Assembly (NCBI GenBank): GCA_950097015.1
Contig: CATNEN010000038.1
Coordinates: forward strand, 1,612,001 to 1,676,000
Source of the DNA: Macrostomum hystrix
Taxonomy: Eukaryota; Animalia; Platyhelminthes
Length of the DNA stretch: 64,000 nt
Reading direction: 5' to 3'
In this document: positions 3,957 to 46,700 of the stretch, one piece after another
How positions within the stretch are numbered: the first letter of the stretch is position 1
Layout of the letters: the number at the start of each line of letters is the position of its first letter
Notes under the pieces: model-generated
Databases searched by the model: none
What the model was told of the DNA's origin: nothing
The model's input: only the letters and a program-made list of their open reading frames with translations
Position numbers and translations under genes: made by a program

Positions 3957-4225
3957 GCGCAGCCTGTACAAAGCTCAACTGTGACGTACAACTGGGCGTA
4001 CAGCTCCCTCGCACACAATGGACTAATTGCGTTTTGACTGCACGGAGACGTTGCTTAACTGTGGTTTGTAACTAAAGCTCTTAAAGCTCTTCGTCCTTCG
4101 TCCTAGCCCGGCCATCCCCGCGCTGGATAAATATTTGCAGCGCGTACTTTTTGTTGTCATTGGCAACCCTTCCGACATCGATGGGCTCATCGACGAGTAA
4201 TTAGGTTCATAATAAGACAAAACAA

Positions 4226-4460
4226 GGGGAGCTTTTGGCCGTGTGGTTGAAGCTTCTGACTTCGGACAGTACAGGGGACATTCGTGTCGCTTAGCGAGAA
4301 TTCCTGTTGCCCCAATCAGCTGTAAAATGGGTACCAGCAAAGTTTGCGCAGGTTTGGCAGCATCCCCAGTCCATGGACTGAGCGTCTGTACAGCCTTTGG
4401 AAGCGCGGAGCAATAGCTGGGGCTGTACATCTGACCCAACTTGGCCAGGTGTTGCATCTC
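4226..4460 (+). mobile_element. CORE-SINE family A copy
   Basis: Contains cagctgtaaaatgggtacc (CORE end) and the 3' body ccagtccatggactga...tgtacatctgacccaa matching the 14736 copy. Confidence 0.7.
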
Positions 4461-28747: not shown

Positions 28748-31700
28748 TCAGACATAGGCCGCCGAGCGTAGATACTGAAAAAACATCAACATTTCTCACT
28801 GCCAGTATCATGGTAGCTGTGACGTTAATCAAATAATAGTCATAGATTATGTACAGGGGCTGTGACCAAGGACGCATCGTTTGGCGACTGCAATTCTGCC
28901 TTTTCCACTGACCCCTGAACACACATTCGCACAGGGGTATGTACATTGGCTCTGACTTTCTCTTCGTGAGGAAGTGTGAGTTTCAGTGTCGGTTGACACT
29001 GGGCGTATCAATTGTATCACAAGCTGCGAAGTTTTCTCTCCGCGGCGGCGCCACATTTCAACGTGCCCTCGCCGCGGATTCCAGCATGGTGCGATGGGGA
29101 CTCTGATGCGATTGCCAGACCCTTTTCCGCTTCGCAACTCAAACCCAGACGTCAATCAAGAGAACCATAGAATCTACAGAAAACCCCAAGAACCGTTGGA
29201 ATCAGATGCCACTTTAGAACGTAAAGTTTCGTCACTCACCTCGTCCTTGGAGAACGCAGCGTAAACTCCACCGTCCGCCTTCCCCTTGGCCCTGAAGGTC
29301 TCGAAGATCGTCTTGAGCCGCACGCAGCAGACAATGAAGTCGTTGAACTCTACAGTGCCCGCTCTGTCTGAGTAGCGCATCACCAGGCATTTGTAGATGC
29401 GGTTGCTCACTCGGAAGCCTGCAAGGTAGTTTGCAGGAATACTGCAGTAATGCGAGTATCCGTCACAAAGATCTTATTGCTTCACTCACCGACTGTGCTC
29501 AGCGCCTGCCTCAACTCGTAGCTGCTGAAACTTCCCAACTTTTCCCCGTCAAACCTCTTGAAGGCTGTCTTCCATATTCGCAAGCTGCTCCACAGCGCCT
29601 TGAACTCGTCGAAGCCCAGCCGGCCTGATTGGTCGGTGTCCATCATGGCCACCATGGAGCGACTCGTCTCCAGAGAGAAGCCCGCGAAATTGAACTCTGC
29701 GGGTTTCAGATTTGGTACACCCTCCGTCTATACTCTCTCCACTGCTGTTTTCTACTCAATGAGCTAGCCGTACCCCTCATGAAAGCCATGTTGAGAATGT
29801 CTCGCAGCTCGTAGGCGTCCACTTCCTGATCGGATCCGGAGACTTTGTCGAAGGCGTGCCGCAGTGCTAGCTCCTGACCCTGCTCGGTTGCTGACGATTC
29901 CATCACCGGCTTCTGCGGGTCAGTGAAGATTCAGATTCTTGAACGCGATTATTCCTTTCTGATACCGGAGTCCAACGATCATAAATATTTGAAGTAAAAA
30001 AAATTTACCGGCAGATCCACCATAGCAGTCACTTCGTCTAACTCCTCGCAACTGACTGGCCCTTCCGCGTATACTCGCAACAGGAATTCCGTCTCGCCGT
30101 CCGGATGAAAAGTAGTTGGCACGATAACGTAATCCCCTGGAGCTAGCTCGTGCCGACAACATACCTGGCGACGCTTGACATAGCCTGCATGATCCACGTT
30201 CTCGTTGTTCCTGCGATTGGTTTAGTAAGATCCCAGAGTGTCACTACTTCTTCATTTTCCTCTCCCTCGGTGTGTCTGTTTAAGTTGAAGCACGCTGTCC
30301 TACTGCGCTTTCTTTTCTCCCCCCCTGTACGTGTAACTTCTTAGCTTATCTTCACTTATCTCTTCTCTCCCTCATCTCTGATTGGCTCACTATTCGTATA
30401 TCTTTCCTCACCCACTCCTTATTATCTCATACCCTCTGGCCAATCCTTACACCTCTTACACTCTAACCCCCTCCTTATCTGGTGTTACTTAAATATATGG
30501 ACTCTCGGCACTAAGGTCGCTCGCGCTCTTTCTACATGCTCAAAGCCGTAAAGACGGTCACTTACTGCGAAGACTCAAATAAGTGCACGATTTCTTTGGA
30601 AAGAAATTGCACAGTGTGATACACAATCCACTTTCATTCCTGATCCCATAGAAGCCACACTCCTACACTCATTCCTGATGCCATAGAAGCCACACTCCTG
30701 CACTCATTCCTGATGCTATAGAAGCCACACTCCTGCACTCATTCCTGATGCCATAGAAGCCACACTCCTGCACTCATTCCTGATGCCATAGAAGCCACAC
30801 TCCTGCACTCATTCCTGATGCCATAGAAGCCACACTCCTGCACTCATTCCTGATGCCATAGAAGCCACACTCCTGCACTCATTCCTGATCCCATAGAAGC
30901 CACACTCCTGCACTCATTCCTGATGCCATAGAAGCCACACTCCTGCACTCATTCCTGATGCCATAGAAGCCACACTCCTGCACTTATTCCTGATGCCATA
31001 GAAGCCACACTCCTACACTCATTCCTGATCCCATAGAAGCCACACTCCTGCACTCATTCCTGATGCCATAGAAGCCACACTCCTGCACTCATTCCTGATG
31101 CCATAGAAGCCACACTCCTGCACTCATTCCTGATGCCATAGAAGCCACACTCCTACACTCATTCCTGATCCCATAGAAGCCACACTCCTGCACTCATTCC
31201 TGATCCCATAGAAGCCACACTCCTGCACTCATTCCTGATCCCATAGAAGCCAGTAGTATGCAAGAGGGGGCTTCTAGGACAAAAATAATCGCAGCCTCCA
31301 TTATCCACAAACCATTACTTTTATTATTCCCGAAGAGATCAGGAAAAAAAGGGTCCCCGCCTCTCTCTAAAAAACTCCGTCTCCGTATTCTAAATTCTCT
31401 ACTTTTAATATTCCACATCAGTTTGTAAGTTGAATATCTAGGACAAAAAATTATCGCAGCCTCCTTAATAAATAAACCATTACCTTTCCTGAAGGAACAA
31501 GGTTCCCCGCCAAAAAAAAAATACTTTCCAGTTTGTGAGTTGCACATCTTGGACAAAACAAATTATCGCAGCCACTCCCTAAGAGATCATGCACAAAATA
31601 GCGAAGCTGCAAAAAGCGTGCCAAGACAATCAAATTAGCACTAAAATCCCAATCAAGACCCCAAACCTTGGGTGCTCATCCTCCGAAAAAAAATTAAATT

Positions 31701-34700
31701 CTTATTAAAAATGCTCCCAATCGTCTCTCCAGGATCTTATTACAAAAGGCATGAGCCTAATTACAAGAGTAAGTACCAATGCAAACAAGAATGCAGCGAG
31801 TACATGAAGAAATATTGTCCCAACGTCGATATCAATGTCCCTAATATTAATCAAGCTCTCCAAAGTCACTGGTTTCATAAGTATGGAGTAATTATAAAGG
31901 ACTATGACAGCTACTATAACTTTGCAGAAATCATTAAGCAGCTATAGACTTTCGTTACAATAGGTTTAAGACTTCTAGACTGCATTAAAATCGATATTTT
32001 TACGTACAAGCGAATGATATTTTGCTGTGTGGCGGGTGGTGTTGAGCGGATTGGGTACGACAGCTGGTTCGGGAATATTCTAGAACGCCCCGTCACGTGA
32101 AGTGAACGTGTATAAATATGCACGCATATCGCTAGACACTGCATGGTATCATAGTGGCTCAAATCCCAGCTTTTTTCAGTGCGCTTCCTAGTCCAAAACC
32201 TAAAAACATGACGCAGAAAACTGGTATCTCTGACGAACTCGCGTGCAATTTATCTTTGGTACCAACGCTCGTAGAATCGCCGATGCAGATCTCGACGCAA
32301 GAAGAAGACCAGCTTTTAGCGCCGACGCAATCACAGTTGATTAGGACCGACACCGTATCCATCACAAGTACACTGAATGGAATGTTTGCCGATCTTCCAT
32401 CTGATCGACAAACAAAGTGGTCGGGTAAGAAAACAGCTGCGCTTTCTGAACTTAAAAAACTGGAGGCGACACTTGAAGAAGACGATGACGAGGAAGATTT
32501 CACCGAAGAAGAAAAACTAAAACAGAAAGAAGAGAAGACAAAGGAAAGGCTGAATCAGCTCAAAACCACACTAAAGGATAATGTCATCAAAGGGCCGCAA
32601 TGTGTATCACATGGCTTCAAAGTGTTCTCATTTGAGAGAAGAAATTCGCTTAAGATCGCCATAGAGCACCTGTCAAACATCAACCGCGACATCGAGCACA
32701 ATCGCCGGAACATTATATACCTGGCTGTTGCAGCCGGGCAAATACTTAAAACAGTGCAGCAGAAGCTGACAAACCGGAAGAAAGGATTTGCGAGCTTTCT
32801 GGACGAAAATCAAAAGAAGATGGGTATCAAGAAGTCAACAGCATATTTCTATATGAAGCTGGCAATGATCGCCGTAGACTTTCCGACGATTCAACAGTTG
32901 TCTCTACCATTGCGAAAACTGCAAGCGATCTTGCCTCGTTTGAGGGAAGTCTGCCGCGCCGATGAAGATTTTTGGAAGAATCTTCAGTAAGATTGATACT
33001 CCTTCAGCTGAAATCGACAGCGCTTCGGTGACGCACAGACTGTATTTCTCAACCATTTCTCCTTCTATGTTGCGAATGCTTTGGTTTGCATGGGTGCTTG
33101 CGCTTTTTCATTTTCTGCATATGTCATTAATTGCATGCTGACGTCATAAAATACATAGCTATTGAGGTCGCTTTTCGCTGCGCGCCTCCTGTGTCTTCTT
33201 GTGTGTTCGCTTTGTGTTCGGCTGGTCACTAAAGTACATTTGAAGGTCAAAGCTGTCCAACGCGTTGGAAAATCTGCCACTGCTAAGCTTTCTCAACTCC
33301 CAACTCTTTCAACAGTCTTCCCATTTCTCTATTTGGTGCCTGCAATACAAAACCAAACCTATCTCTACCCCCACACTCCACACCCGCCTTCCCACACACG
33401 CACCCCTCTTCCCACAAACAGCCACCAATCCCCAACCCCAACTTTGTCTTACCAAAAATAACAGCTTTAACTAGCTTCCGAGCGATCGATTCCCTCCACC
33501 CGCTTGAAGCCCCCATATTGTCTAGCATTCTGAGCATTTCTTTGTCCCAGCGAGTCTTCTCCTCTGGAAAATCCCTATACTTAATATCATGCCACATACA
33601 GACAGAGTCTAGCTCGTTCACAGGCTCATGCCCAGGATTTGGATTATTGTTTTTATCTAGCTGTATTTCAAGCGGATTCAAAGGCCCGCAATATTTGTAG
33701 CCGGGAATTGTCCAGCCTTTGTTTGGATGAGGAAGCTTTTCTACCAGTCCATGTGAGTCTAAGTTTCCACCAGAGCGTTGCATCATTTTTATAAAAAATT
33801 AAATAAAAAATAATGGCAGATCAGAAACTTCAAAAGCTCTACTACAGCGACAAAGGATTCTTTGTAGGAAAAAATGCAGTCACTAAACTCGCAGAACTAA
33901 GCAATGAATCAAAACAAACAGTTGAAAGATGGCTCTCTAAGCAAGCAGTTTACCAAGTCTATTTCCCACCTGTTAAATTTACAAGACCTCACTTTAACAT
34001 CTATAAACCTAATGAAGCGCACCAAGCAGATCTTCTGTTTCTCCCCAATGACTCAGGCTACAAGTATGCGCTCACTGTTATAGACATTGCCTCCAGATAT
34101 AAGGAAGCGAGACCGCTTAAGACTAAGAAGTCAGAAGCAGTTGCAGCTGCCCTCCAAGACATTTACAAAAACTCACCGCTCACATACCCCCAAACCTTTA
34201 TGACTGATCCTGGCAAAGAATTCATGGGAGCAGTCAAATCCCTTATGGAAAAGAACAATACGAAAATGCGCTATGGAAGAACTGAGCTCCATAGAGACCA
34301 GGCTTTTGTTGAAAGATTCAATCTAACTCTAGCAAAGAGACTTTTCACAAAGCAGACAGCTGAAGAGCTGAAACTAAAAAGTGGCCAATACTATACCAAG
34401 TGGACAGAAAGACTCCCCGCAGTAATAAGTCAACTGAACAATGAAGTATCTCGAATGACAAACCTGAAACCAAATACTGCCATCAAACAAGACACAGTTA
34501 AATCAAAACATTCAATCGCCCAATTCCCAATTCCAAAGCTCCCTGGTGTTTATTCCCCGGAAATTCTTACTAACTCTGAATTCGTTCGCTTCCTTTACTT
34601 ACCAGGAGAGCTGGAGAAGGACACAAAGAGAAGAGCAACAGACCCATACTTTAGTCTTGATGTACATAAGATAAACAGGCATTTCACATCAGCATCCGGT

Positions 34701-37700
34701 GATTACTATTTTCTATCCCAAGACTTTAATTCAAAAGCCCCCACACGATCATTCACAAGGGCTGAGCTTCTAGTGATTCCACATGACACAGAAATAAATT
34801 AAATTTTTTTTTAAATAAAATGATTGAAACCAGAACCGTGAATAAAATCAGCAGAATTATCGACTCTAAGAAGCCAGGCGTTGTATCAATTAAAGGTGTC
34901 AAAGTCAAAGTAGATCCAATCCAGCATCTGATCCATTGTAACAATCAAACGCACAATATCACTGATGAGAAGACAGGTGGGATTCTTCCTTTGCTAACTC
35001 TTATCCCCATCATCGCAGGTGCTCTTGGTGCTGCAGGAGGTGTAGCCGGCGGAGTTGCATCAGCTGTGAAGGCTGGCAATGACAGAGCACATCAACAAGA
35101 GATGGAGAAAATCGCTAGAGAAAAAGGAGTCAGAATCGGGGGTAGTTGTGAATCTGATGAATCAGCTGATGAATCAGTCAGCAAATCAGAAATCGTTAAA
35201 GCCATCATGACACTGCATAAAGCAGGATTTACAATACTCCGGATGTGAAAACAGAACAGAACAGAATCTGCTCTCATAACTATATTTAGCACTGTTGGTA
35301 GTAGTATGCCATACTTTACACTTAACTTGAGGGTGACCACCCTAAATTTTTTTTATAAAATTTTCATTAAAAATGCCTAAAGCAATTCCAGAAAAAAAAT
35401 TTGTCGAATCTTTCTTTCAAAATTATTGTCCTCAAGCCTCTTCTTTTCAGCAGAAAAGTAAAGTTTTGCAAGAGCTTTGCAGGCAGAAATTCAATACAGA
35501 TCCAGGCCACCTCGGGAGCTATGCAATACAGCAAGAAATTATTAATCAGCTTCTGCATTCAGAGCAGTACACACCAGTGAAGAAGCCGGCGACTGAACAC
35601 CAACAAAAGAGCCGCAGCTTAGTCAATAAGTATGAGACACTCACAGGTCAAAATGTGTCGAAATACCCACAGAATAAGCAAGAGCAAGAAGATCTAGAAC
35701 GCACAATCCACCAGGTTGAAGCAGAGCTACAAGCAGAAACTGAAGACCTTAAATTTGCACAGAGAAAATTCACAGAGTATTATATTGAATACACAATCCA
35801 GGAAGACACCACAAATTCCCAATCCGACATTTACGACTTCAAAGACAGAATTCAATCAGTAATTGATCACACACTGAAGTCACGTAAGACCTTCAAGCTT
35901 CAGTTATCATTCAAGATAGAATTTTACATGCCTGCAAAACCCACTGAGCGTCTTGAATACTACATGACTACTAAAGCTCTACCCTTTACTCCCACTGACA
36001 CACAGGATCCCTTTCTTCAAGAGATCAGTAAAAAGATTGACGCCTTTACTTCCAGAGGATCAGGTTGGGTTGTCAATGGCATTCAAAAAGCTACAGTAAT
36101 GATCATGAAATATGACCCTCTCAAAGCTTCATCATATATTGAGCTCCCGAAAAAGTTAGCGAGTAAAAAAGCTTGCATCAATGTGCAAAATGATGACCAA
36201 TGCTGTGCACTATGGGCCGTTCTGTCTGCAATATTGTATGAGAAAGATCGAGCCCACCCAGAGAGAACTTCTCATTATAAAATGTATTTTGACGCAAAAC
36301 TTTTAGAATGCCATGCTAAAGGAATTTCCTTCAATAGAGGCGGCTTGGCAATCGATCAAATCCCAAAGCTAGAGGAAGTATTTAACAATAAAATCAGAAT
36401 CACAGTCTTTGAATGGAATGAGAAGAGCGAAAAAGTACAATTAGTCAGAGCCAGTAAAAACACGCTAGATCCTGAAGGTAGGCGTCGCATAGATGTCGAT
36501 CTTCTAATCATAGGTGATTTGCGAGAAAATGCCCACTACGTTTGGATTAAAGATCTTTCCAGGCTCCTCCACAAGCAAATGAACAATCATCATGAATCGG
36601 TAGCAATCTGCCGTCTTTGTCTGAAGCATTATAGTGGACCCGATCGTGATGAAAAACTTAAAGAGCATGAACTGACCTGTGAAGATCATCCAACCAACTG
36701 CACACTTCCAACGGATAAGCATCTCAGATTTAAGAGTTATCACAAGATGGAGAAGCTCCCGTTTATAGTGTATGCCGACTTCGAATGTACTATAAACCCT
36801 GAAACCAATAAGCATGTCCCAAATTCTGTTGCGTATCTCTTTATTGGAAGAGACTCTTTTATTTGCTCAAACTATTTCTTAGGCGAACAGTGTGTTGAAC
36901 AATTCATTTACTCGATGATGGAATTACAGAAAAATGTTGCTGCCATTCAGCCTGTTCAAATAATTATGTCCGATCAAGATGAAATCGACTTCGGATCTGC
37001 AACTCATTGTCACATTTGCCGAAAGCTATTAACACCCTGCGACGTCAAAAACCACACAGTCAGAGACCACGATCACTTCACAGGAAAATTTAGAGGGGCA
37101 GCTCATAACACCTGTAATCTGAAACTTCAGAAAAACATCCGCGACCTTACCATTTTCTTCCATAACGGAAGGGGATATGATTATCACTTGTTGGTTGAGA
37201 AGCTGGGTATAATACCAGGCATTAAACTAGATTGCATCGCAGAGAACAAAGAAAAGTTTAAGTGCATTGATATTAAGCGAGATTCAGGCAAGATTAAGAT
37301 CAAAGATTCATTCCAGTTTCTGGCCGCAAGTCTCGATGCTTTGAGTAAAAATCTCACCGATGACCAATGTACTTATACCAAGATGCTGGCAGATTCCCCA
37401 GATTCATTTAAGCTTCTTAGAAAGAAAGGTGTCTACCCTTATGAATGTAATCACGTCTTTGCAGAACCACTACCACCCAAGGACAAGTTCTTTTCAAAGC
37501 TAACAAACTCTGGGATTTCTGATGAAGATTATGAGCATGCTCAGACTGTTTACAAACATTTTAACTGTCGAAACTTTCTTGATTATCACATGCTTTACCT
37601 TTGGACTGATGTCTTTCTTCTAGCTGATGTATTTGAAACCTTTAGAAAGACCTGGTACTCTGCTTATGGTCTCGACCCCGCTCATTATGTGTCTTTGCCT

Positions 37701-40700
37701 GCTACCAGTTGGGAATCATTGCTTAAAATGAAATGGGATCAAAATCCCAACTGGTACATCGAGCTGCTTACAGACATAGACATGTACAACTTTATAGATT
37801 CATCTAAGAGAGGTGGCATCTCAATTTGTGTCCATAGGCATGCAAAGGCAAACAATCCGTATCTAGAAGACTATGATAAAGAAAAGCCTTCAAACTACAT
37901 CCTTTATCTGGATGCCAACAACCTCTATGGTTGGGCTATGAGCCAAGATTTACCTGTTAGAGATTTTAGGTGGCTAGATACTTATAAACTCGACTTTTCA
38001 ATACCTGCGATCTATGAAGTTGATGTTGAAATCCCAAGGGAACTTCACGACGATTTCTCTGACTTTGCCCCCTTCCCTGAGAACATTAACTGTCCAAAGA
38101 TAATCCAGTACAATGATGGAAGCTGGCAGCTATCTGAAAAAGAAAAAGAGCGTGTGAAAAAGTTAACACAAAATCTCATGAACAAGACACGCTATAAAAT
38201 CCACTACAAACTGTTGCAGTATTTTATCTCCCTAGGCTGTAGGGTCACGAATGTTCACAGGGCTCTCGCATTCACAGAAGAAGCGTGGATGAAGCCATAC
38301 ATAGAAAAAAACACCCAGTTTAGAACTAAAGCAACAAACAGCTTTGACAAGGACCTGTTCAAGCTTGCAAACAACTCTGTCTATGGCAAGACCCTAGAAA
38401 ACGAACGCAACCGCACGAACCTGAAGCTCGTTACCTGTTATGAGCCTGGTACTATTCAGACAAGTTTATCAAAGCCCACTTTCAAAGAGCTTCATATCTT
38501 TAATGATTACTTGGGTGCCATACTGTTCTATAAGACTAAAGTTACCCTATGCAAGCCCATATTTACAGGTGTGACTGTACTCGATGAGTCGAAGCGTCTG
38601 ATGTATAAATTCTTCTATGACATGAAGCGGCAATATGGTGAGCAACTGAAACTTCTATATACTGACACAGACTCCCTAATTCTAAACATACAGACTGAGG
38701 ATGTCTATCAGGACATGTTGAATCAAAAACATCTGTATGACCTATCCGAATATCCAGAGTCCTTCAAGACTTTGAAAGGTGATCAAGTACGCGACACTGG
38801 AAATCAAAAAGTTGTAGGAAAAATGAAGGATGAAACGGCTGGCACCCTCATTACAGAGTTTATCGGTTTGAGGGCAAAGTCCTATTTTGTAAAAAGTTGT
38901 AAGTCTACCATTAAAAAATCAAAAGGAATCCCAAAACATGTTGTTAAAAACGATCTCCATGAAGCTTCATACAAGGACGCATTGATCAATAATAAAAACA
39001 CCACCCATGAATTTATGAAACTGCAGTCTAAGAACCACAACATTCACACAATTCAACAGAAGAAGATAGGCCTCTCAGGTGCTGATAACAAACGACATAT
39101 CTTTGATGACAACATTACCAGCCTACCATTTGGACACTATAGATTAAATAATTTGTAACAAAAAAGTTGTAACAAAAAAAATTTGTTAAAAAAATAATGA
39201 CAACCAATATTTTTTTAGAAGAGCTAGCTCAGCAATTAAAAATCCCAAACTTCAGAGGCGTCTTTATGAAGGATACACTGCCAGAATCCCCACTAGAAAA
39301 AGAATGTGGAATCATGAACTTTGACCCTGCAGAAAAGCCAGGTTCTCATTGGGTTTGTTGGGTAATTGATCCCAACCGTAAACACAAGTACTATTACTTT
39401 GATAGCTATGGTACGGCCGTGCCTGAAGTGCTGAGAAATTATATGACTCATATGAGACATAAAATGAGACATAAAATATACCGCTCAGATTTTATACTCC
39501 AGGGTATTAACAGTGATATTTGTGGCGAGCTATGTATGACTGTTTTGTATGCAATGACCCACACCCGAAAAAGTTACAAAGAAATCATTTTAGGGCTGAA
39601 AAAATAATTTTTTTAGGTCCCGTTAGGTCCTGTTAGGTCTTGTTCATTTTCGCTACTTTCGCGACATGCTGTTTGAACACATTCTCCAGATCATTTCTTA
39701 GCTGGCTCATTTCATCAATGGTATTTAGATTAAGCCTAACTCGTTGCTCATAGAGGTCTTGAATGTTTTTAAACTCATCCTCTGAAATGAACTTGTCTTC
39801 AATCGCCTTTGAGATGTACCCGATGATAGAGCTTTGTACTGATTTCTCATTTGTTTGCTTCGCATGTAGATGCTTTAGCTTTTGTCGTCTGTTCCGTGAT
39901 AGTGCTCCTGTAACTGCTGAAATCAGACCACATGTGGCACCAGCAGCTCCGAGTGGAATGGCGATTGGTACAGTGATTACAGGAAGTGTTGAAACAGCAG
40001 CTGCTGATCCCGATAGAACAGATACAGATCCAAGAAACATATTAAGGTAATCGAAGACCTTGCACTCTCTATTATAGCGCTTCAGTTTCTTGGTATTATG
40101 ATCAATTTGCCGTTCAATATCAGCTCGCATCTTTTGAATCTCCACCAATCTGAATTGCTGCGAGTTGCAAGTGAAAGTAACTGGGGTTGGGTAGATGGGT
40201 TGGTAAGGAGCACTAGGTTGGCTTGGAGGCGCACTAGGTTCATATAGAGAGTTAATTTTTTCAGACATTTTTTTGAACGAAAAAAATTATATATATTTTT
40301 TATGACCTTTCTCGCAAATCTGTTGCACGCCTTGCCGCCTCCCTTGATGCCTCTTCTGATGGTCCATCAGATACTCTTGCTTCTTCAATGTCAATGTCTG
40401 GCAGATTGTGCAGTCTCTCTAGTCGGCCGAGTCTTCTTTTCGTTTTCCCCCAGTCGTTGTATATCCTATTCAAATACTCAGTGTGTCTTGTTACGTTTAG
40501 CCCCATGGGTCTTAGTGTTTCCTTTGTTTCATTTGCTAGTCTCTGAAGAGCTGTTATATCTGACTCTGCTGCTGTGAGTCGCGAACTCAATCTATCATGC
40601 ACAGTGCTTGATCTTAGCATAAAGGCTTCTAAATTTCGAACTTTATTTGAATTTTCTGTTACTCTTTCTTCCACCAAGTTTGCTCGATTATTAACGGCAG

Positions 40701-43700
40701 TTCTCAGAGTGGCGATGTCTGATCTTAGAGTGGCGATGTCTGATCTCAGAGTGGGTATCGCTGCAACAAGAGTATCCCGATCATGAACAAACTGTACATA
40801 TAGTATGTCAATCTCTTCCTTCCGTTTTGCTACGCTCAACCGCAGGTCTTCCATGTTTATTTGTTGTTGGTGTGTTGCCCGCTCTAGGGCTTTCAAGCGA
40901 TCTTTATTGAGTTTGATTTCTGGAATTTTTTCGTCAACATTTATATAACGCCTGTCAAGGTAAGAAACTTGAGCACTAGTGAGTGTGCTTCCGCGATCCA
41001 ACGATTCACCTGCAAAATTAATAGACATTTTTTTAATAACAAAATTTAAATTACAGTTCTTTTTTCTTTGTTGATCATCACAAACTGGTAAGGTTGATTC
41101 CACTTTTCATAGCAAAGATTAACGAATTCCTCCTGTGAAATCTTTCTGTTGGAGTTTTTTGTTGGATTTACAAAATGGGCAGGCGCAATGACCTCATTGT
41201 AAAATCTTTTTAGCCTGTCCTGTGGAATTGTTGGAAACAGGAGGATCAGATTGCAGTTCCCACGAATTGTTTTGTTCGGGAGCTCGAACCAGTTCTGAGC
41301 AATGTAAATTACGTTACAATTGTTGTGCCGTCCTCTTGTAAAATAGTTTTCTATCTGCTTCTGTGGGCCTGTCATGCAATCATCAAAGACAATCAAATGT
41401 TTTCTCCCCTTTTCTAGCTCATCTGGTTGGGGTAGAAGTTTGGTCTTAGGATCAACCTGCGGATCTCCGTATGTGAACACTTTAATGTTCTGCCATTTTT
41501 CATTGTCTTTGAGGTACTTTGCATATTCGGCAGCTACAATTTCTGGGTTACTGGGAAGGCGCTTTTGGTTATTAAAACATTGAATAATGTTCTCTTTGGT
41601 CAGTTTGTTTTGAAGTCCAGAGATCAACATTTTATACTCATCTTGATACAGGGTGGGAGAGTAGATGTGCAGAGTGTCATAGTCGATAAAGCCAGGTCTA
41701 AGAAGCATGTTAAAGACTCTGAATGTTTTACCTGAACCTGACGAACCAACAACAATGCATCTGAAGTGACCCGGGATTGACTCATGATGAGAAAACTTAA
41801 TCTGATTACGTGTCCAGTGAGGATTGAAGTCGTTTGAAAAGTCCATTTTTCTATGATGAAAAATAAATTAAAAAAGTAAATCATTTATAAGATGTGTCTA
41901 GGACTTAGATGTGTCTAGGACTTAGATGTGTCTATTTGGGACTTAGATGTGTCTATTTGGGACTTAGATGTGTCTATTTGGGACTTAGATGTGTCTATTT
42001 GGGACTAGTCTTGTACCCTTACATGTCTTGTACCCTCGAAAAGCACCCTTTAGTCAAATTTGAAACCACTTCCTTTTTTAATGCTAGCTATGCTAGCTCT
42101 CATCTTCTCGTAGATTGCAGGGTCCACACTGTCTGGATTCGGGGCCAGCGGAGCCAGCGGAGCCAGCGGAGCCAGCGGAGCCAATGGTGGCTGAATATCT
42201 TGTGTTACAGTATCCTTTATCTTTTTAGCCGCAGTGACAACGCTTCCCACAGATTCAGCCACGTTCTTAATATTATCTTTGTTCTCACTAATGACTTTAA
42301 AGACCCGGGCACCCTGTGCAATTATATCAGCAAGACCATTCCCGGAGCGTTCTTTCCTCGGATAGTGGCCTGCCGGGAAAAGTCCGGATCCACGCTTAAT
42401 TAGATTAAGTTCCTCCTTGTCATAGTATTTGCTCACGTCTTTTTCGAAAATAATCGGCATTTTTATTAGGGAAGAAATTATTTTTTGTTAAAACGTGAAA
42501 GCAGAAGCTCTCTTGCCCGTTTGTCGATATACTTCTTTTCCATCATTTTGTCCAGGATGTTGACAAATTCTTTTCTATTTTCGTCTTTCATGCCAGTCTT
42601 TGCAGCTCCAAGAAGAACAGCCACTCGCTTATAGATGTCAGAAATTCCTTTTCCTTGAAATGATTGGTCAGTGGAGGACTGGTCGGTGGAGGACTGGGGT
42701 GAACTCTCAACTGCTCTTTGTTGTGGTGTGAACACTCTTGCTTTGATTTTATTCATTTGAGCTGGGGAGAAATTTTCTAGTTGTTGCCAGGCATCTGGGT
42801 GATCATTTTTATATTTAGCTACTTGAGTCGGATCTGCATTTTCAAGGGCACTGAGTACGTCTTCGGGTTTGAATGTTTGTTGCTGCTGTGGCGGTTGCTG
42901 CTGGGGCGGTTGCTGCTGGGGCGGTTGCTGCTGGGGCGGTTGCTGTTCTAGATATTTTATGGCATCTTCTTGATCTGGCAAACCAAACCATTGTTTAAAA
43001 TGCTTGTACTTTTTGAATCTAGTCAGGATGACACCGTTGTCATGCATTATTTTCAGAACTTGTGGGACCTTTAGTATTTCTATATCTCTAGCAAGAGCAA
43101 AACTCACTAGATCTCTATAGTTCTTTAGCTGCTTGTCCGAAATTTTCTCTTGGTTCTTAGTCATAAAATTCAGTAAGGTTTCTGTGTAAATTATTCTCTT
43201 AGTTTCTGAGCCTTTGACAACAGAAATATGGTTCTTATTTATGTCGATAAAATATTCCACTGGTTCATTATAAATGTTTTTTCTCCACATACTTATTCCA
43301 AATACATATTTCCCATCATGTTCTGCGCGTTCTACTGGTCCAAAAAAGTTATCTGTCACTTTTAGTTGTGACTGTTGTGGGACTTGGACTTGCGGATCTG
43401 CAGATTGTTGTATCTGCGGTGCTTCTGGAATTTTGTCCAAAGCCTTTTGCACCTGGGTTTCCTGTATGTCGTCAATAGTTTCTTTGACTTGATCAATATT
43501 TTTCTTAGCTTCTCCATACCCGGGTTTATGAAACTCTGTGGCTGCTTGGACAAACTCATTGTAGGATTGTTGCTCCTTATTGATTAGCCCGGTAACTCTC
43601 TTTTCTGCTTGTGCTAGCTTCTCCAATTCAGATATTTGGTGCGCATTTTTTCGCTTCATTTCTTATTTTATTTTTTTTTAGTTTAAAAAATGAACGACCC

Positions 43701-46700
43701 ACTGACACCAGTTTTCTACAAAATTAACAAGCCTATTTTGAGTGATGATAGCACAATCAAAGCGACTCAAGTAAGAGTTCCCAGTCAGGAAAATCAGAAT
43801 GAAACTAATCTTGGTCCTGGTCAAACACTGACATTCACCTACAATGGATGTTCGTCTCTGGTTAGTGTGCACAGTCTTAAGAGCGGTTTCCATATGACAT
43901 TTCAATTCAAGACAAAAGGAGGTGCGGATGCAGCTCATGCTAACGTTGAAAAGCATGATGCAGATGTGGCTCTGATTAGTAACTTTTGGGCGTACATGTT
44001 CAAGGAGTTTAGTGTATCGAATGGGAGCACAGAGTTGGAGCGAATCGCCAACTTTGGAATTGTCTATGACGCTCATTGTTTGATCGAGAATCCAGATTTT
44101 ATTCAGTTGGGGAGTGGTGCGGGTTTCATTGCAGATGAAAAAGAAGGAGATATCAATGACAGTGGCTATAAAAAGAGGAAGAAGAGATACAACTATGCGT
44201 TGCAAGGTGCTGATGATGCTGCTAAGAACCCGCTGTATCGGACTGTTGATGTATTCGTACCACTGAGATTCATGAGTGGATTCTGTAATACATTTAATCG
44301 ACTGACTAGTAACTTCAGCTACACCTTTAAGATGACTAGAGATGATCGCAGTAGAGTGTTGTGGACTGGGGCGGACCACACTAGGATGGAAGTGAAGCTA
44401 ACCGGAATCGAGCTGTATTTGGAAGTCATTGAGCCAAAGACCGCACTAAAAGCAGATTATCTCAAGGCAATAGAGAAGGACATTGATGTCGCCTACACGG
44501 CCTACATGTGTCGAGATGAGCGAAACGAAACCAGAACAAACATCTGCATTAAAGAGGGATCATGCAGCAATCCTAGGTATATTATTATTAACATGAGAAA
44601 CCCAAATAACATTATACGCTACATGCATGGAGATGTGCGGTCCATTCAGCATGAAATCAGTGATAATCTTTACCCCGCACTGCCACAAAATGGAAATTTC
44701 AGTCAGAACAAGATTAGCAAATTTTACAGCGAGTTGGTCGACTTGGCTGTGAAAGAGAACAATGGAATTGCTATCACTGCTCTTCAATATGGAACTCTTT
44801 ATCCAATGTTTGGTGCTGATGTGTCTGCCAGACAAATGCCTACTGATAACAGCCCTGTGAATATCGTGACTAACATTGAGAGGACTGCAGCAACTGCTGT
44901 TGACCTGTACATTATCTATGCGTTCGAGAGGAAGGTGAAGCTTAACATGATCAACAATTCATCCAGTAAAGTTTAAATATTTTTTTTTTCGGGGCTGAAA
45001 AATGTTAGCGATTGCTGAAAGACTAAATAATATTATTTCTCACTCTAAGGAGAGCATTCCTATTACAATAGCTGGGCGAATTAATGACTCAAACGGGATA
45101 TTTGTTGAAAAATTAGAGCAGGCGATTCGTCTGGATCCAGGTGCTAATTACCATGTATATCTTAACGACTTCACTGGTTGGTCAAACGTTCCCAATGTGA
45201 CAGCAGCAAATAATAAGTTTCATTACAAATGGAAAGGTGTAGCAGCAGAAGCTGTGGTATTCCCTGTGAGCACACAGGGCGTGGACACCTATAATTACTT
45301 TCTAGAAAACGTCTTTACTAAAAGAGGCCATTTTGAAACACCCAATGCGAGTAAGCCAGAGAAGAAACTGTTCCCTGTCAAACTATCCTATGATCTCACT
45401 GTAATGAGAGTGGTCATGCAAGTTCACAAAGAAGCGGAGGTTGAATTTAGAGATGACACTTGGTATAAGGAATTGGGATTCGAGAAGAAAGTTTATAAGG
45501 CGGAATCCGGGGAAAGCGGTCTGTTCTTAGCACCCAATATCGCAGACATTGTAAAGGGTTTGAATATTCTAATCAGAAGTAATCTCAGTCTTGATTGGGT
45601 ATTTAAGGGAAAGCGAACGAATATTTTGTACAACATCTCAAACTCTGTTGCTGGAGGACAGATGCTGGTAGAGAAACCAAATCCAGTGAAAAGAGTTGTG
45701 CTAAGTAATAAGGAGATTCACGAGATTGTGCTGCAGTTTGAGACGGAAGATGGTGTTGGCGTTGATTTCAACGGTGAAGAGTTTGTATTGACGTTGATCA
45801 TTGAGAGAATGTGAAAAAAAAAACATTTTACAATTGCCTAATGATTTCTGCAAAGTTATAGTAGCTGTCATAGTCCTTGACGTAGGTTACTCCATACTTA
45901 TGAAACCAGTGACTTTGGAGAGCTTGATTAATATTAGGGACATTGATATCGACGTTGGGACAATATTTCTTCATGTACTCGCTGCATTCTTGTTTGCATT
46001 GGTACTTACTCTTGTAATTAGGCTCATGCCTTTTGTAATAAGATCCTGGAGAGACGATTGGGAGCATTTTTAATAAGAATTTAATTTTTTTTCGGAGGAT
46101 GAGCACCCAAGGTTTGGGGTCTTGATTGGGATTTTAGTGCTAATTTGATTGTCTTGGCACGCTTTTTGCAGCTTCGCTATTTTGTGCATGATCTCTTAGG
46201 GAGTGGCTGCGATAATTTGTTTTGTCCAAGATGTGCAACTCACAAACTGGAAAGTATTTTTTTTTTGGCGGGGAACCTTGTTCCTTCAGGAAAGGTAATG
46301 GTTTATTTATTAAGGAGGCTGCGATAATTTTTGTCCTAGATATTCAACTTACAAACTGATGTGGAATATTAAAAGTAGAGAATTTAGAATACGGAGACGG
46401 AGTTTTTTAGAGAGAGGCGGGGACCCTTTTTTTCCTGATCTCTTCGGGAATAATAAAAGTAATGGTTTGTGGATAATGGAGGCTGCGATTATTTTTGTCC
46501 TAGAAGCCCCCTCTTGCATACTACTGAAGCCACACTCCTGCACTCATTACTGATGCCATAGAGGCCACACTCCTGCACTCATTCCTGATCCCATAGAAGC
46601 CACACTCCTACACTCATTCCTGATCTCATTCCATCCATCGAAAATCCATAAGTTTACCAAAAGAATTTGGTGTTCAGAGCCCTGTTGCTGTTTGGCTTCT

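Follow-up and report, generated by a model that had tools for sequence, protein, structure and literature searches.

What triggers the expression, excision and particle formation of Polintons in animals? The question is raised by a 64,000-nt stretch of the Macrostomum hystrix genome (contig CATNEN010000038.1, positions 1,612,001 to 1,676,000), here called the window, which carries an intact Polinton (Maverick) of alpha-adintovirus-like type. In this element, a gene for a 260-amino-acid (aa) protein is preceded by a heat-shock element (HSE), an E-box and a TATA box. As read from the sequence, these sites would form a promoter through which the host heat-shock factor (HSF) likely drives a regulator with an early, stress-sensing role, a reading to which we give an even chance. 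That the HSE is functional is, taken by itself, probable. To the question of the trigger, the finding offers a gene, a host factor and a candidate operator. Were the reading true, heat and infection stress would be linked to the activity of transposons or viruses in invertebrates, marine ones included.

The promoter of the 260-aa gene

The sites before the gene, and the gene itself, are as follows (window positions).

32049 to 32054, minus strand: inverted CCAAT box, GATTGG; at chance level, and differently placed in the homologous locus L132
32067 to 32086, no strand: perfect four-unit HSE, gTTCg-gGAAt-aTTCt-aGAAc, with a TTCTAGAA core, 43 nt upstream of the TATA box
32086 to 32091, no strand: CGCCCC between HSE and E-box, which we take to be GC-box-like
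32093 to 32100, no strand: E-box TCACGTGA; its CACGTG starts 17 nt 5' of the TATA box (14 nt in L132)
32111 to 32118, plus strand: TATA box TATAAATA, 97 nt before the ATG, within an imperfect 18-bp palindrome (32107-32124)
32208 to 32990, plus strand: gene of the 260-aa protein, which has a low-complexity N-terminus, an acidic run (residues 81-100) and an all-helical C-terminal domain (~140-258)

An earlier note on this DNA had reported the inverted CCAAT, the four-unit HSE, the E-box and the TATA box, and all four were found where it had placed them. Its description of the HSE as perfect also holds: the site scores 12 of 12 and is the sole perfect match of at least three units in the 64,000 nt, while the runner-up places reach 10 of 12. 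A canonical HSF1 site is defined, in a passage of PMC9157408, as three or more alternating nGAAn units, with three being enough for stable HSF1 binding. In sequence, the arrangement found here matches that of a canonical heat-shock promoter, with at least three alternating units and the HSE close 5' of the TATA box and the gene start. Transcription would start near 32138-32143, which is ~30 nt past the TATA box. The location given for the HSE needed correction. Instead of just inside the left terminal inverted repeat (TIR), the HSE lies ~125 nt inside the inner end of that repeat (about 31940). It does precede the open reading frame (ORF) at 32208-32990, but this is not the first internal ORF, as a 78-codon ORF of the TIR comes before it.

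How often would such a site arise by chance? Dinucleotide-shuffled versions of the element (2,000 in all) contain on average 0.0085 such HSEs each, and when the 267-nt upstream region was base-shuffled 200,000 times, the HSE came up in 6e-5 of the trials. The E-box sequence TCACGTGA occurs once in the 64-kb window. The other motifs are weak alone: when the 300 nt upstream were shuffled 10,000 times, CCAAT/ATTGG appeared in 4,296 of the shuffles, TATAWAW in 1,857 and CACGTG in 591. In combination, a three-unit HSE (HSE3) plus TATA was found in 5 of 50,000 shuffles and, with CACGTG added in between, in 0 of 50,000, a figure that is descriptive only as the pattern was defined on the window site itself. 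We consider it very improbable that the 20-mer arose by chance, is an imperfect palindrome of its own making (with 8 of 10 pairs) or serves another factor, with HSF playing no part. Such an origin would be in keeping with the free scan by which the motifs were found and with the 16 imperfect palindromes of at least 8 pairs in the element; in addition, any array of alternating nGAAn units is bound to be palindromic. It is hard to reconcile with a match at every HSE position in the correct 5-bp phase, and with the in-phase HSE, E-box and TATA of the unrelated L132 promoter sequence described below.

Contigs of four sequencing runs were compared over 31900-35400. A contig of run X6 extends across 32024-32179 with 1 differing letter, so the promoter is near-unchanged in that sample, as is the ORF. 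The X6 and X7 contigs over the ORF start at 32160 and 32172, near the proposed transcription start; these runs are of unknown kind and come from one study, and the positions are not used as evidence. In run X2, from another organism, contigs cover relatives of the PLA2, integrase and pX genes and none crosses 32017-33186 at 80% likeness, a gap that is uninformative. Within the leader of the 260-aa gene there is a three-codon upstream ORF (32143-32154) and a splice-acceptor-like TTTTTTCAG (32171-32179).

Of 14 ORFs compared, the 260-aa gene alone combines a long leader with upstream sites and a TATA box. The A+T content of the 30 nt 5' of the ATG is 57% at this gene, whereas it is 77-97% for the other 13. 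Of the 11 gaps between core genes, 9 measure 17-38 nt; in two divergent pairs, the genes are separated by 26 and 30 nt. The 13 other genes thus lack the space for a promoter of this kind, whereas the 260-aa gene has enough for one of host type together with a 5' UTR. TATA-like words are present at 4 of 13 core genes, 7-27 nt from the ATG, with one more at 43 nt. The view that this is the only host-style promoter in the provirus thus survives in comparative form, for 1 of 14 ORFs, and is tempered by a lone competitor at 33139-33151, a cAMP response element (CRE) with CATAAAA.

33139 to 33225, plus strand: CRE TGACGTCA, then CATAAA/AATACA and a TG-rich tract; a second promoter-like patch or a variant poly(A) site of the 260-aa gene

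The roles given to these motifs (CRE, poly(A)-type signals) are presumed. Very short, A+T-rich spacers with an A-rich run at the ATG are seen both in the window core genes (33283-45814) and in eight distant contigs related through pPolB (L121-L128).

The spacer architecture bears on a different use of the HSE, in infection and not in latency. Here, the early gene would be boosted by HSF1 that becomes active when the element replicates or when a large DNA virus co-infects the cell, and the core promoters would be read, in virophage-like fashion, by a helper or recruited polymerase. The core TATA-like words at 7-27 nt are too near the ATG for a normal RNA polymerase II (Pol II) leader, the A+T-rich spacer style extends through the 8 distant contigs, and the homologous locus L129 (see below) has immune-type sites. 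Passages in the literature report that HSF1 is activated by Vaccinia infection (PMC9157408) and that Polinton-like viruses are associated with entomopoxviruses (PMC11296320). However, the analysis identified neither a helper virus nor a motif of helper type, and the short spacers may overlie core-gene promoters hidden within neighbouring coding DNA. Use in infection alone is decidedly unlikely, and it is compatible with, rather than exclusive of, a stress-sensing promoter.

The cassette that holds the 260-aa gene (31941-33282) has a CpG observed/expected ratio of 1.0-1.2 versus 0.59 in the core (Fisher p 6e-10). Because CpG is kept there while the core is depleted, the cassette is a distinct module, which was either acquired separately or kept unmethylated.

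Conservation of the layout in homologous loci

From its alignment, the 260-aa protein belongs to a Polinton-associated family. A full HMMER scan gave 13 matches, of which the top one (P0010, an Ig-repeat sequence unlike the query) was excluded, leaving 12 homologs. These are 20-28% identical in the alignment, are conserved across the C-terminal 120 residues and are without the first ~45 residues. A metagenome scan gave at least 594 candidate stretches, with 5 homolog loci (L129-L133) among the matches listed. As L131 and L133 begin within the gene and are 100% identical to L130 and L132 where they overlap them, and L129 and L130 are 91% alike, the loci represent two independent lineages with upstream DNA. 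Both lie within Polintons, as judged from an adenain protease in L132 (E 2.7e-10) and a pPolB fragment in L129 (E 2.6e-22). The capsid-like fragments of L132 gave no significant match to the capsid profile, so it is the protease alone that assigns this locus to a Polinton.

The existence of the family, and the repetition of HSE, CACGTG and TATA at its distant member L132, are new in this analysis and are read from sequence. The L132 and window proteins are 19% identical and their DNA is not alignable. Relative to its ATG, L132 has CACGTG at -136, a perfect HSE3 with the TTCTAGAA core at -98, a further CACGTG at -54 and TATAAAA at -40. Having been defined on the window, this layout was then tested out-of-sample on L132, where HSE3 was reached in 28 of 10,000 shuffles, HSE3 plus TATA in 3 of 50,000 and the pattern with CACGTG between in 0 of 50,000. 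In control DNA, the HSE3-CACGTG-TATA layout was present in 0 of 8 pPolB-related contigs that are without the gene and 0 times in 48,727 nt of host flank. Among viral-contig loci chosen for a four-unit HSE plus TATA (at least 120), CACGTG lies in between in 0 of the 120 matches listed; any match to element proteins is found in 1 of these 120 (protease, E 2e-4), and the loci serve as background only. What stands of the claim that the HSE wakes the provirus is a predicted host-type, HSF-responsive promoter on one Polinton gene, with its layout kept in L132.

RCGTG words are present nine times in the 300 nt before the L132 homolog (4150-4450; 0 of 10,000 shuffles) and four times in the window promoter (258 of 10,000). 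This excess may reflect a hypoxia-type or basic helix-loop-helix input, or a self-binding site.

Other results weigh against an HSF-driven regulator. Conservation of the HSE in related Polintons, which the earlier note had proposed as a check, is found at L132 and fails at L129, so that an upstream HSE is present in 1 of the 2 independent lineages only. There is no HSE in the 498 nt upstream of the L129 gene, and in L130 and L131 the HSE is downstream of the gene (~150 nt in L130). In addition, the HSE-TATA spacing is 43 nt in the window versus 58 nt in L132, where the TATA box is just 40 nt from the ATG.

The 300 nt upstream of the L129 gene hold three sites each of STAT type and ETS type, and single sites of NF-kB type, AP-1 and CRE, names that we assign from consensus words presumed to apply. 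In a scan of twelve motif classes, these counts were reached in 13 (STAT), 0 (ETS), 137 (NF-kB), 448 (AP-1) and 34 (CRE) of 10,000 shuffles, and they are not independent because the STAT/ETS units form a local repeat. A compact STAT/ETS/NF-kB/AP-1-like block lies before the homolog at 225-445 of L129, and further downstream at 2340-2403 of L130, where the gene copy is frameshifted, and at 765-828 of L131. This block is a possible immune-inducible Polinton promoter. Because L129 is without an upstream HSE and has immune-type sites, the general rule looks like a host-signal-wired regulator, for which heat shock would be one input.

The 260-aa protein and a candidate operator

What would the product of such a promoter do? 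The acidic run at residues 81-100 has a net charge of -9. A predicted model of residues 95-260, made from a 20-sequence alignment, is all-helical and confident (predicted local distance difference test, pLDDT, 84; predicted template modelling score 0.78), while the single-sequence fold was unusable (pLDDT 47). Over residues ~145-255, there is weak profile and fold likeness to ParB/Spo0J, Borrelia PF49 and DUF3102 domains; ParB has an N-terminal domain that was not detected in the 260-aa protein, and no match passed a curated or significance threshold. No Pfam family is common to the members of the family, in which the ParB, PF49 and DUF3102 profile threshold was not reached. The protein also weakly matches the N-termini of two unnamed phage families. 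With Foldseek, Orf4 of Leptospira phage LE1 was matched with a probability of 0.90, a root-mean-square deviation (rmsd) of 2.7 A over 80 columns and an E of 1.9, and a DUF3102 protein with an E above 1. The best structural Z for the model is 6.0.

These likenesses, which are concordant, weakly suggest a modelled helix-turn-helix of ParB/DUF3102 type, and we put binding of the protein to element DNA at slightly better than even. The ORF had been called putative DNA-binding from the outset, an idea that is only weakly borne out because the PF49-, ParB- and DUF3102-type matches are all sub-threshold. To the adverse points above must be added that the match to the Borrelia PF49 partition protein (E 0.0007-0.0045) reaches 17.5-20.1 bits versus a cut-off of 60, in 1 of 20 family members, and that Foldseek gave no match with E<0.001 for the model. 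Moreover, Spo0J (Z 5.2, rmsd 3.7, 91 aligned) and the ParB DNA-binding domain (DBD; Z 4.0, rmsd 4.9, 92 aligned) do not stand above unrelated helical proteins.

Direct sequence searches with the 260-aa protein found no homologs among 866 candidates from the word-index collection, or in viral contigs, metagenomes, phages or plasmids, and family alignments found no matches in viral contigs or prokaryote genomes. Against PDB sequences, only designed or coiled-coil helices were matched. An Oncoid/E1A-like immediate-early identity was rejected, as the protein is without LxCxE, a CR1-like motif and paired CxxC, the motifs by which a passage of PMC8502044 defines Oncoids.

A site at which the protein could act is found at the far end of the cassette.

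33256 to 33269, no strand: perfect 14-bp palindrome TCCAACGCGTTGGA, ACGCGT-centred, with core AACGCGTT; candidate site of the 260-aa protein

A palindrome centred on AACGCGTT lies 20-35 nt before the homolog ATG in L129, and a 20-mer version is just upstream of the homolog in L130. The window and L129 palindromes are one symmetric pair of changes apart. Among 5,000 cassette shuffles, 167 contain the 8-mer, which is found a single time in the 48,727 nt of host flank and is absent from all 8 pPolB contigs; none of the 5,000 contains the 14-letter pattern, whose definition was post hoc. The ACGCGT-centred palindrome is a candidate operator. Counting against it, the palindrome is the best blastn match of the cassette to L129 at 15/17 with an E of just 0.41. 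In L132, the copy spans 12 bp, lies where a coding frame is possible and may have arisen there by chance. The window palindrome is 265 nt downstream of the stop, whereas those of L129 and L130 closely precede the ATG. In the family tree, the window protein joins neither L129 nor L132 with support; because it is not so grouped with L129, the palindrome is shared without backing from the tree.

The nearest fold pointers, which are to partition proteins (PF49, Spo0J and ParB DBDs) and to Leptospira phage LE1 Orf4, raise the alternative of an HSF-responsive promoter whose product does not wake the element but maintains it, by ParB/EBNA1-like episome tethering, or represses it so that it stays quiet under stress. 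Such wiring has a parallel in the Qp promoter of Epstein-Barr virus (EBV), which drives EBNA1 through a functional HSE according to a passage of PMC9157408. Furthermore, the L129/L130 palindrome is 20-35 nt before its own ATG, where an autorepression site is expected. However, these loci have single palindromes only and no arrays, and the acidic stretch at 81-100 could be an activation surface, though the homologs are without the first ~45 residues. A maintaining or repressing product is, overall, unlikely. For the case in which the HSE is functional and the protein binds element DNA, we regard a net activating effect, rather than maintenance or repression, as evenly poised.

In the proposed induction by stress, an integrated, quiet element would begin its cycle under host proteotoxic stress, which could be heat or infection by another virus. 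Here, host HSF would bind the HSE, with Pol II starting ~30 nt beyond the TATA box. The 260-aa protein, as a dimer, would recognise the ACGCGT-centred palindrome and affect the compact core genes, or else excision and replication. Related elements would wire the homologous gene to other host signals, such as those read by the STAT/NF-kB/AP-1-like sites of L129. The broadest form of the proposal is that animal Polintons carry a family of small ParB-like regulators in a variable cassette near the TIR, each member wired to a different host alarm (HSF in the window and L132, STAT/NF-kB/AP-1 in L129) and acting at a palindromic operator as an induction switch to the core programme; in this form it is doubtful.

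Known systems and the rest of the element

Parasites wired to HSF are known, including ONSEN, Helitrons with HSEs, the HIV long terminal repeat (LTR), EBV Qp and ORF50/BZLF1. ONSEN, an Arabidopsis retrotransposon, is like the window Polinton in being a mobile element with a heat-response element, which host HSF reads in ONSEN and is predicted to read in the Polinton (PMC3907296 for ONSEN). In ONSEN, the heat-response element is in the LTR, drives the whole genome and has a shown function, whereas the window HSE fronts one gene, regulatory-looking from its sequence, of a DNA-virus-like element; in addition, the ONSEN promoter is without CG sites (PMC3907296), whereas the window cassette is CpG-rich. 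As predicted for the window, an HSF input is found at a key promoter of a latent or integrated virus in EBV Qp-EBNA1, where it lies upstream of a viral DNA-binding protein, and in the HIV-1 LTR (PMC9157408), and HSF2 acts at the viral lytic switch in ORF50 of Kaposi's sarcoma-associated herpesvirus and BZLF1 of EBV (PMC12047821). These viruses and their proteins are unrelated to the window element and the likeness implies no homology. In Caenorhabditis, HSEs within Helitrons, which are DNA transposons, are reported to up-regulate nearby host genes (PMC6927752), unlike the single HSE of the window, which is before the element's own gene.

The inverted CCAAT, E-box and TATA had also been likened to the major late promoter of adenovirus. 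The order of inverted CAAT, USF E-box and TATA is indeed the same (PMC13457585). However, the adenovirus E-box is at ~-60 from the start and the promoter drives late genes, versus an E-box 17 nt before the TATA box in the window. Homology was rejected, as the spacing differs and the CCAAT box, besides being at chance level, does not keep its position in L132; the comparison adds nothing.

A Polinton family of Drosophila subobscura was up after heat shock in all samples, partly by less than two-fold (a passage of PMC10627563). A further adverse point comes from the coral Stylophora, where Polinton core-gene expression grouped by colony and not by heat, in a design without a statistical test (a passage of PMC11131425). 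In heat-stress RNA data, the 260-aa gene is the place to look, rather than the core genes pooled in the coral study. Searches of the open literature returned no paper on an HSE in a Polinton, or on the promoter of a Polinton regulator. By term look-up, no promoter analysis was found in PMC8097293, PMC11296320 and PMC8896005, and no mention of Polintons in PMC8896005. Maverick particles are stated not to have been observed (a passage of PMC8097293).

The element as a whole is made up as follows.

31252 to 46525, no strand: Polinton/Maverick, alpha-adintovirus-like, intact, 15,274 bp, identified from TIRs, termini, target-site duplication (TSD) and Pfam genes
31252 to 31940, no strand: left TIR, ~690 nt, 99% identical to the right TIR
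45835 to 46525, no strand: right TIR
33283 to 45814, no strand: core genes for PLA2-like protein, rve integrase, pX-like protein, pPolB, adenain protease and A32 ATPase
within 33283 to 45814, no strand: further core genes for a double-jelly-roll capsid, a probable minor capsid and four unknown ORFs

The element ends in AGTAGTA...TACTACT, which are (AGT)n-type termini of Polintons/Mavericks, and has the 6-bp TSD of this class, GAAGCC, at both sides; the insertion site is a 35-bp minisatellite. In Pfam, the PLA2 gene is of parvovirus type and the integrase matches PF00665 (E 2e-9). The packaging genes expected of a Polinton are present as capsid (PF21738, E 7e-5), ATPase (PF04665, E 6e-6) and adenain (PF00770, E 1e-5), and the window capsid has homologs carrying PF21738. 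The 1261-aa polymerase ORF gave no PolB match in Pfam and is taken to be PolB from its motifs; it aligns over ~850-1200 aa at 33-38% to long ORFs in 7 viral contigs. Capsid and integrase scans of viral contigs gave no matches. Alpha-adintovirus-type Polintons share with the window element the TIRs, the 6-bp TSD, rve, pPolB, adenain, A32, capsid, PLA2 and a pX-like gene (PMC8502044). The passages concerned cover the accessory genes Oncoid and Adintoc, but no promoter (PMC8502044).

Several smaller features accompany these genes. Both TIRs contain an inward-pointing 78/79-codon ORF (31711-31947 and 45828-46067), which has an A+T-rich start context like the core genes and gave no family match. 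Each TIR also has three related sub-repeats of ~45-50 nt with a TCGCAGCC core (31273-31575), which are candidate protein-binding sites. The terminal 10-mer AGTAGTATGC is copied internally (35300-35346), between pX and pPolB, and is followed by a 20-nt imperfect hairpin; this copy may be an origin-like or terminal-protein site. An endonuclease-VII-like stretch lies in the polymerase ORF at residues ~543-592 (window 37000-37150). Rfam gave 1 weak match over 31200-35400, at chance level. The flanks of the Polinton contain Rhodopsin-family receptor ORFs and gag-like ORFs (Pfam), as would be expected of an animal host. Long minisatellites, with periods of 12-42 and as many as 166 copies, are densely spread over the host DNA at 5211-31252, where several long ORFs are artefacts of them.

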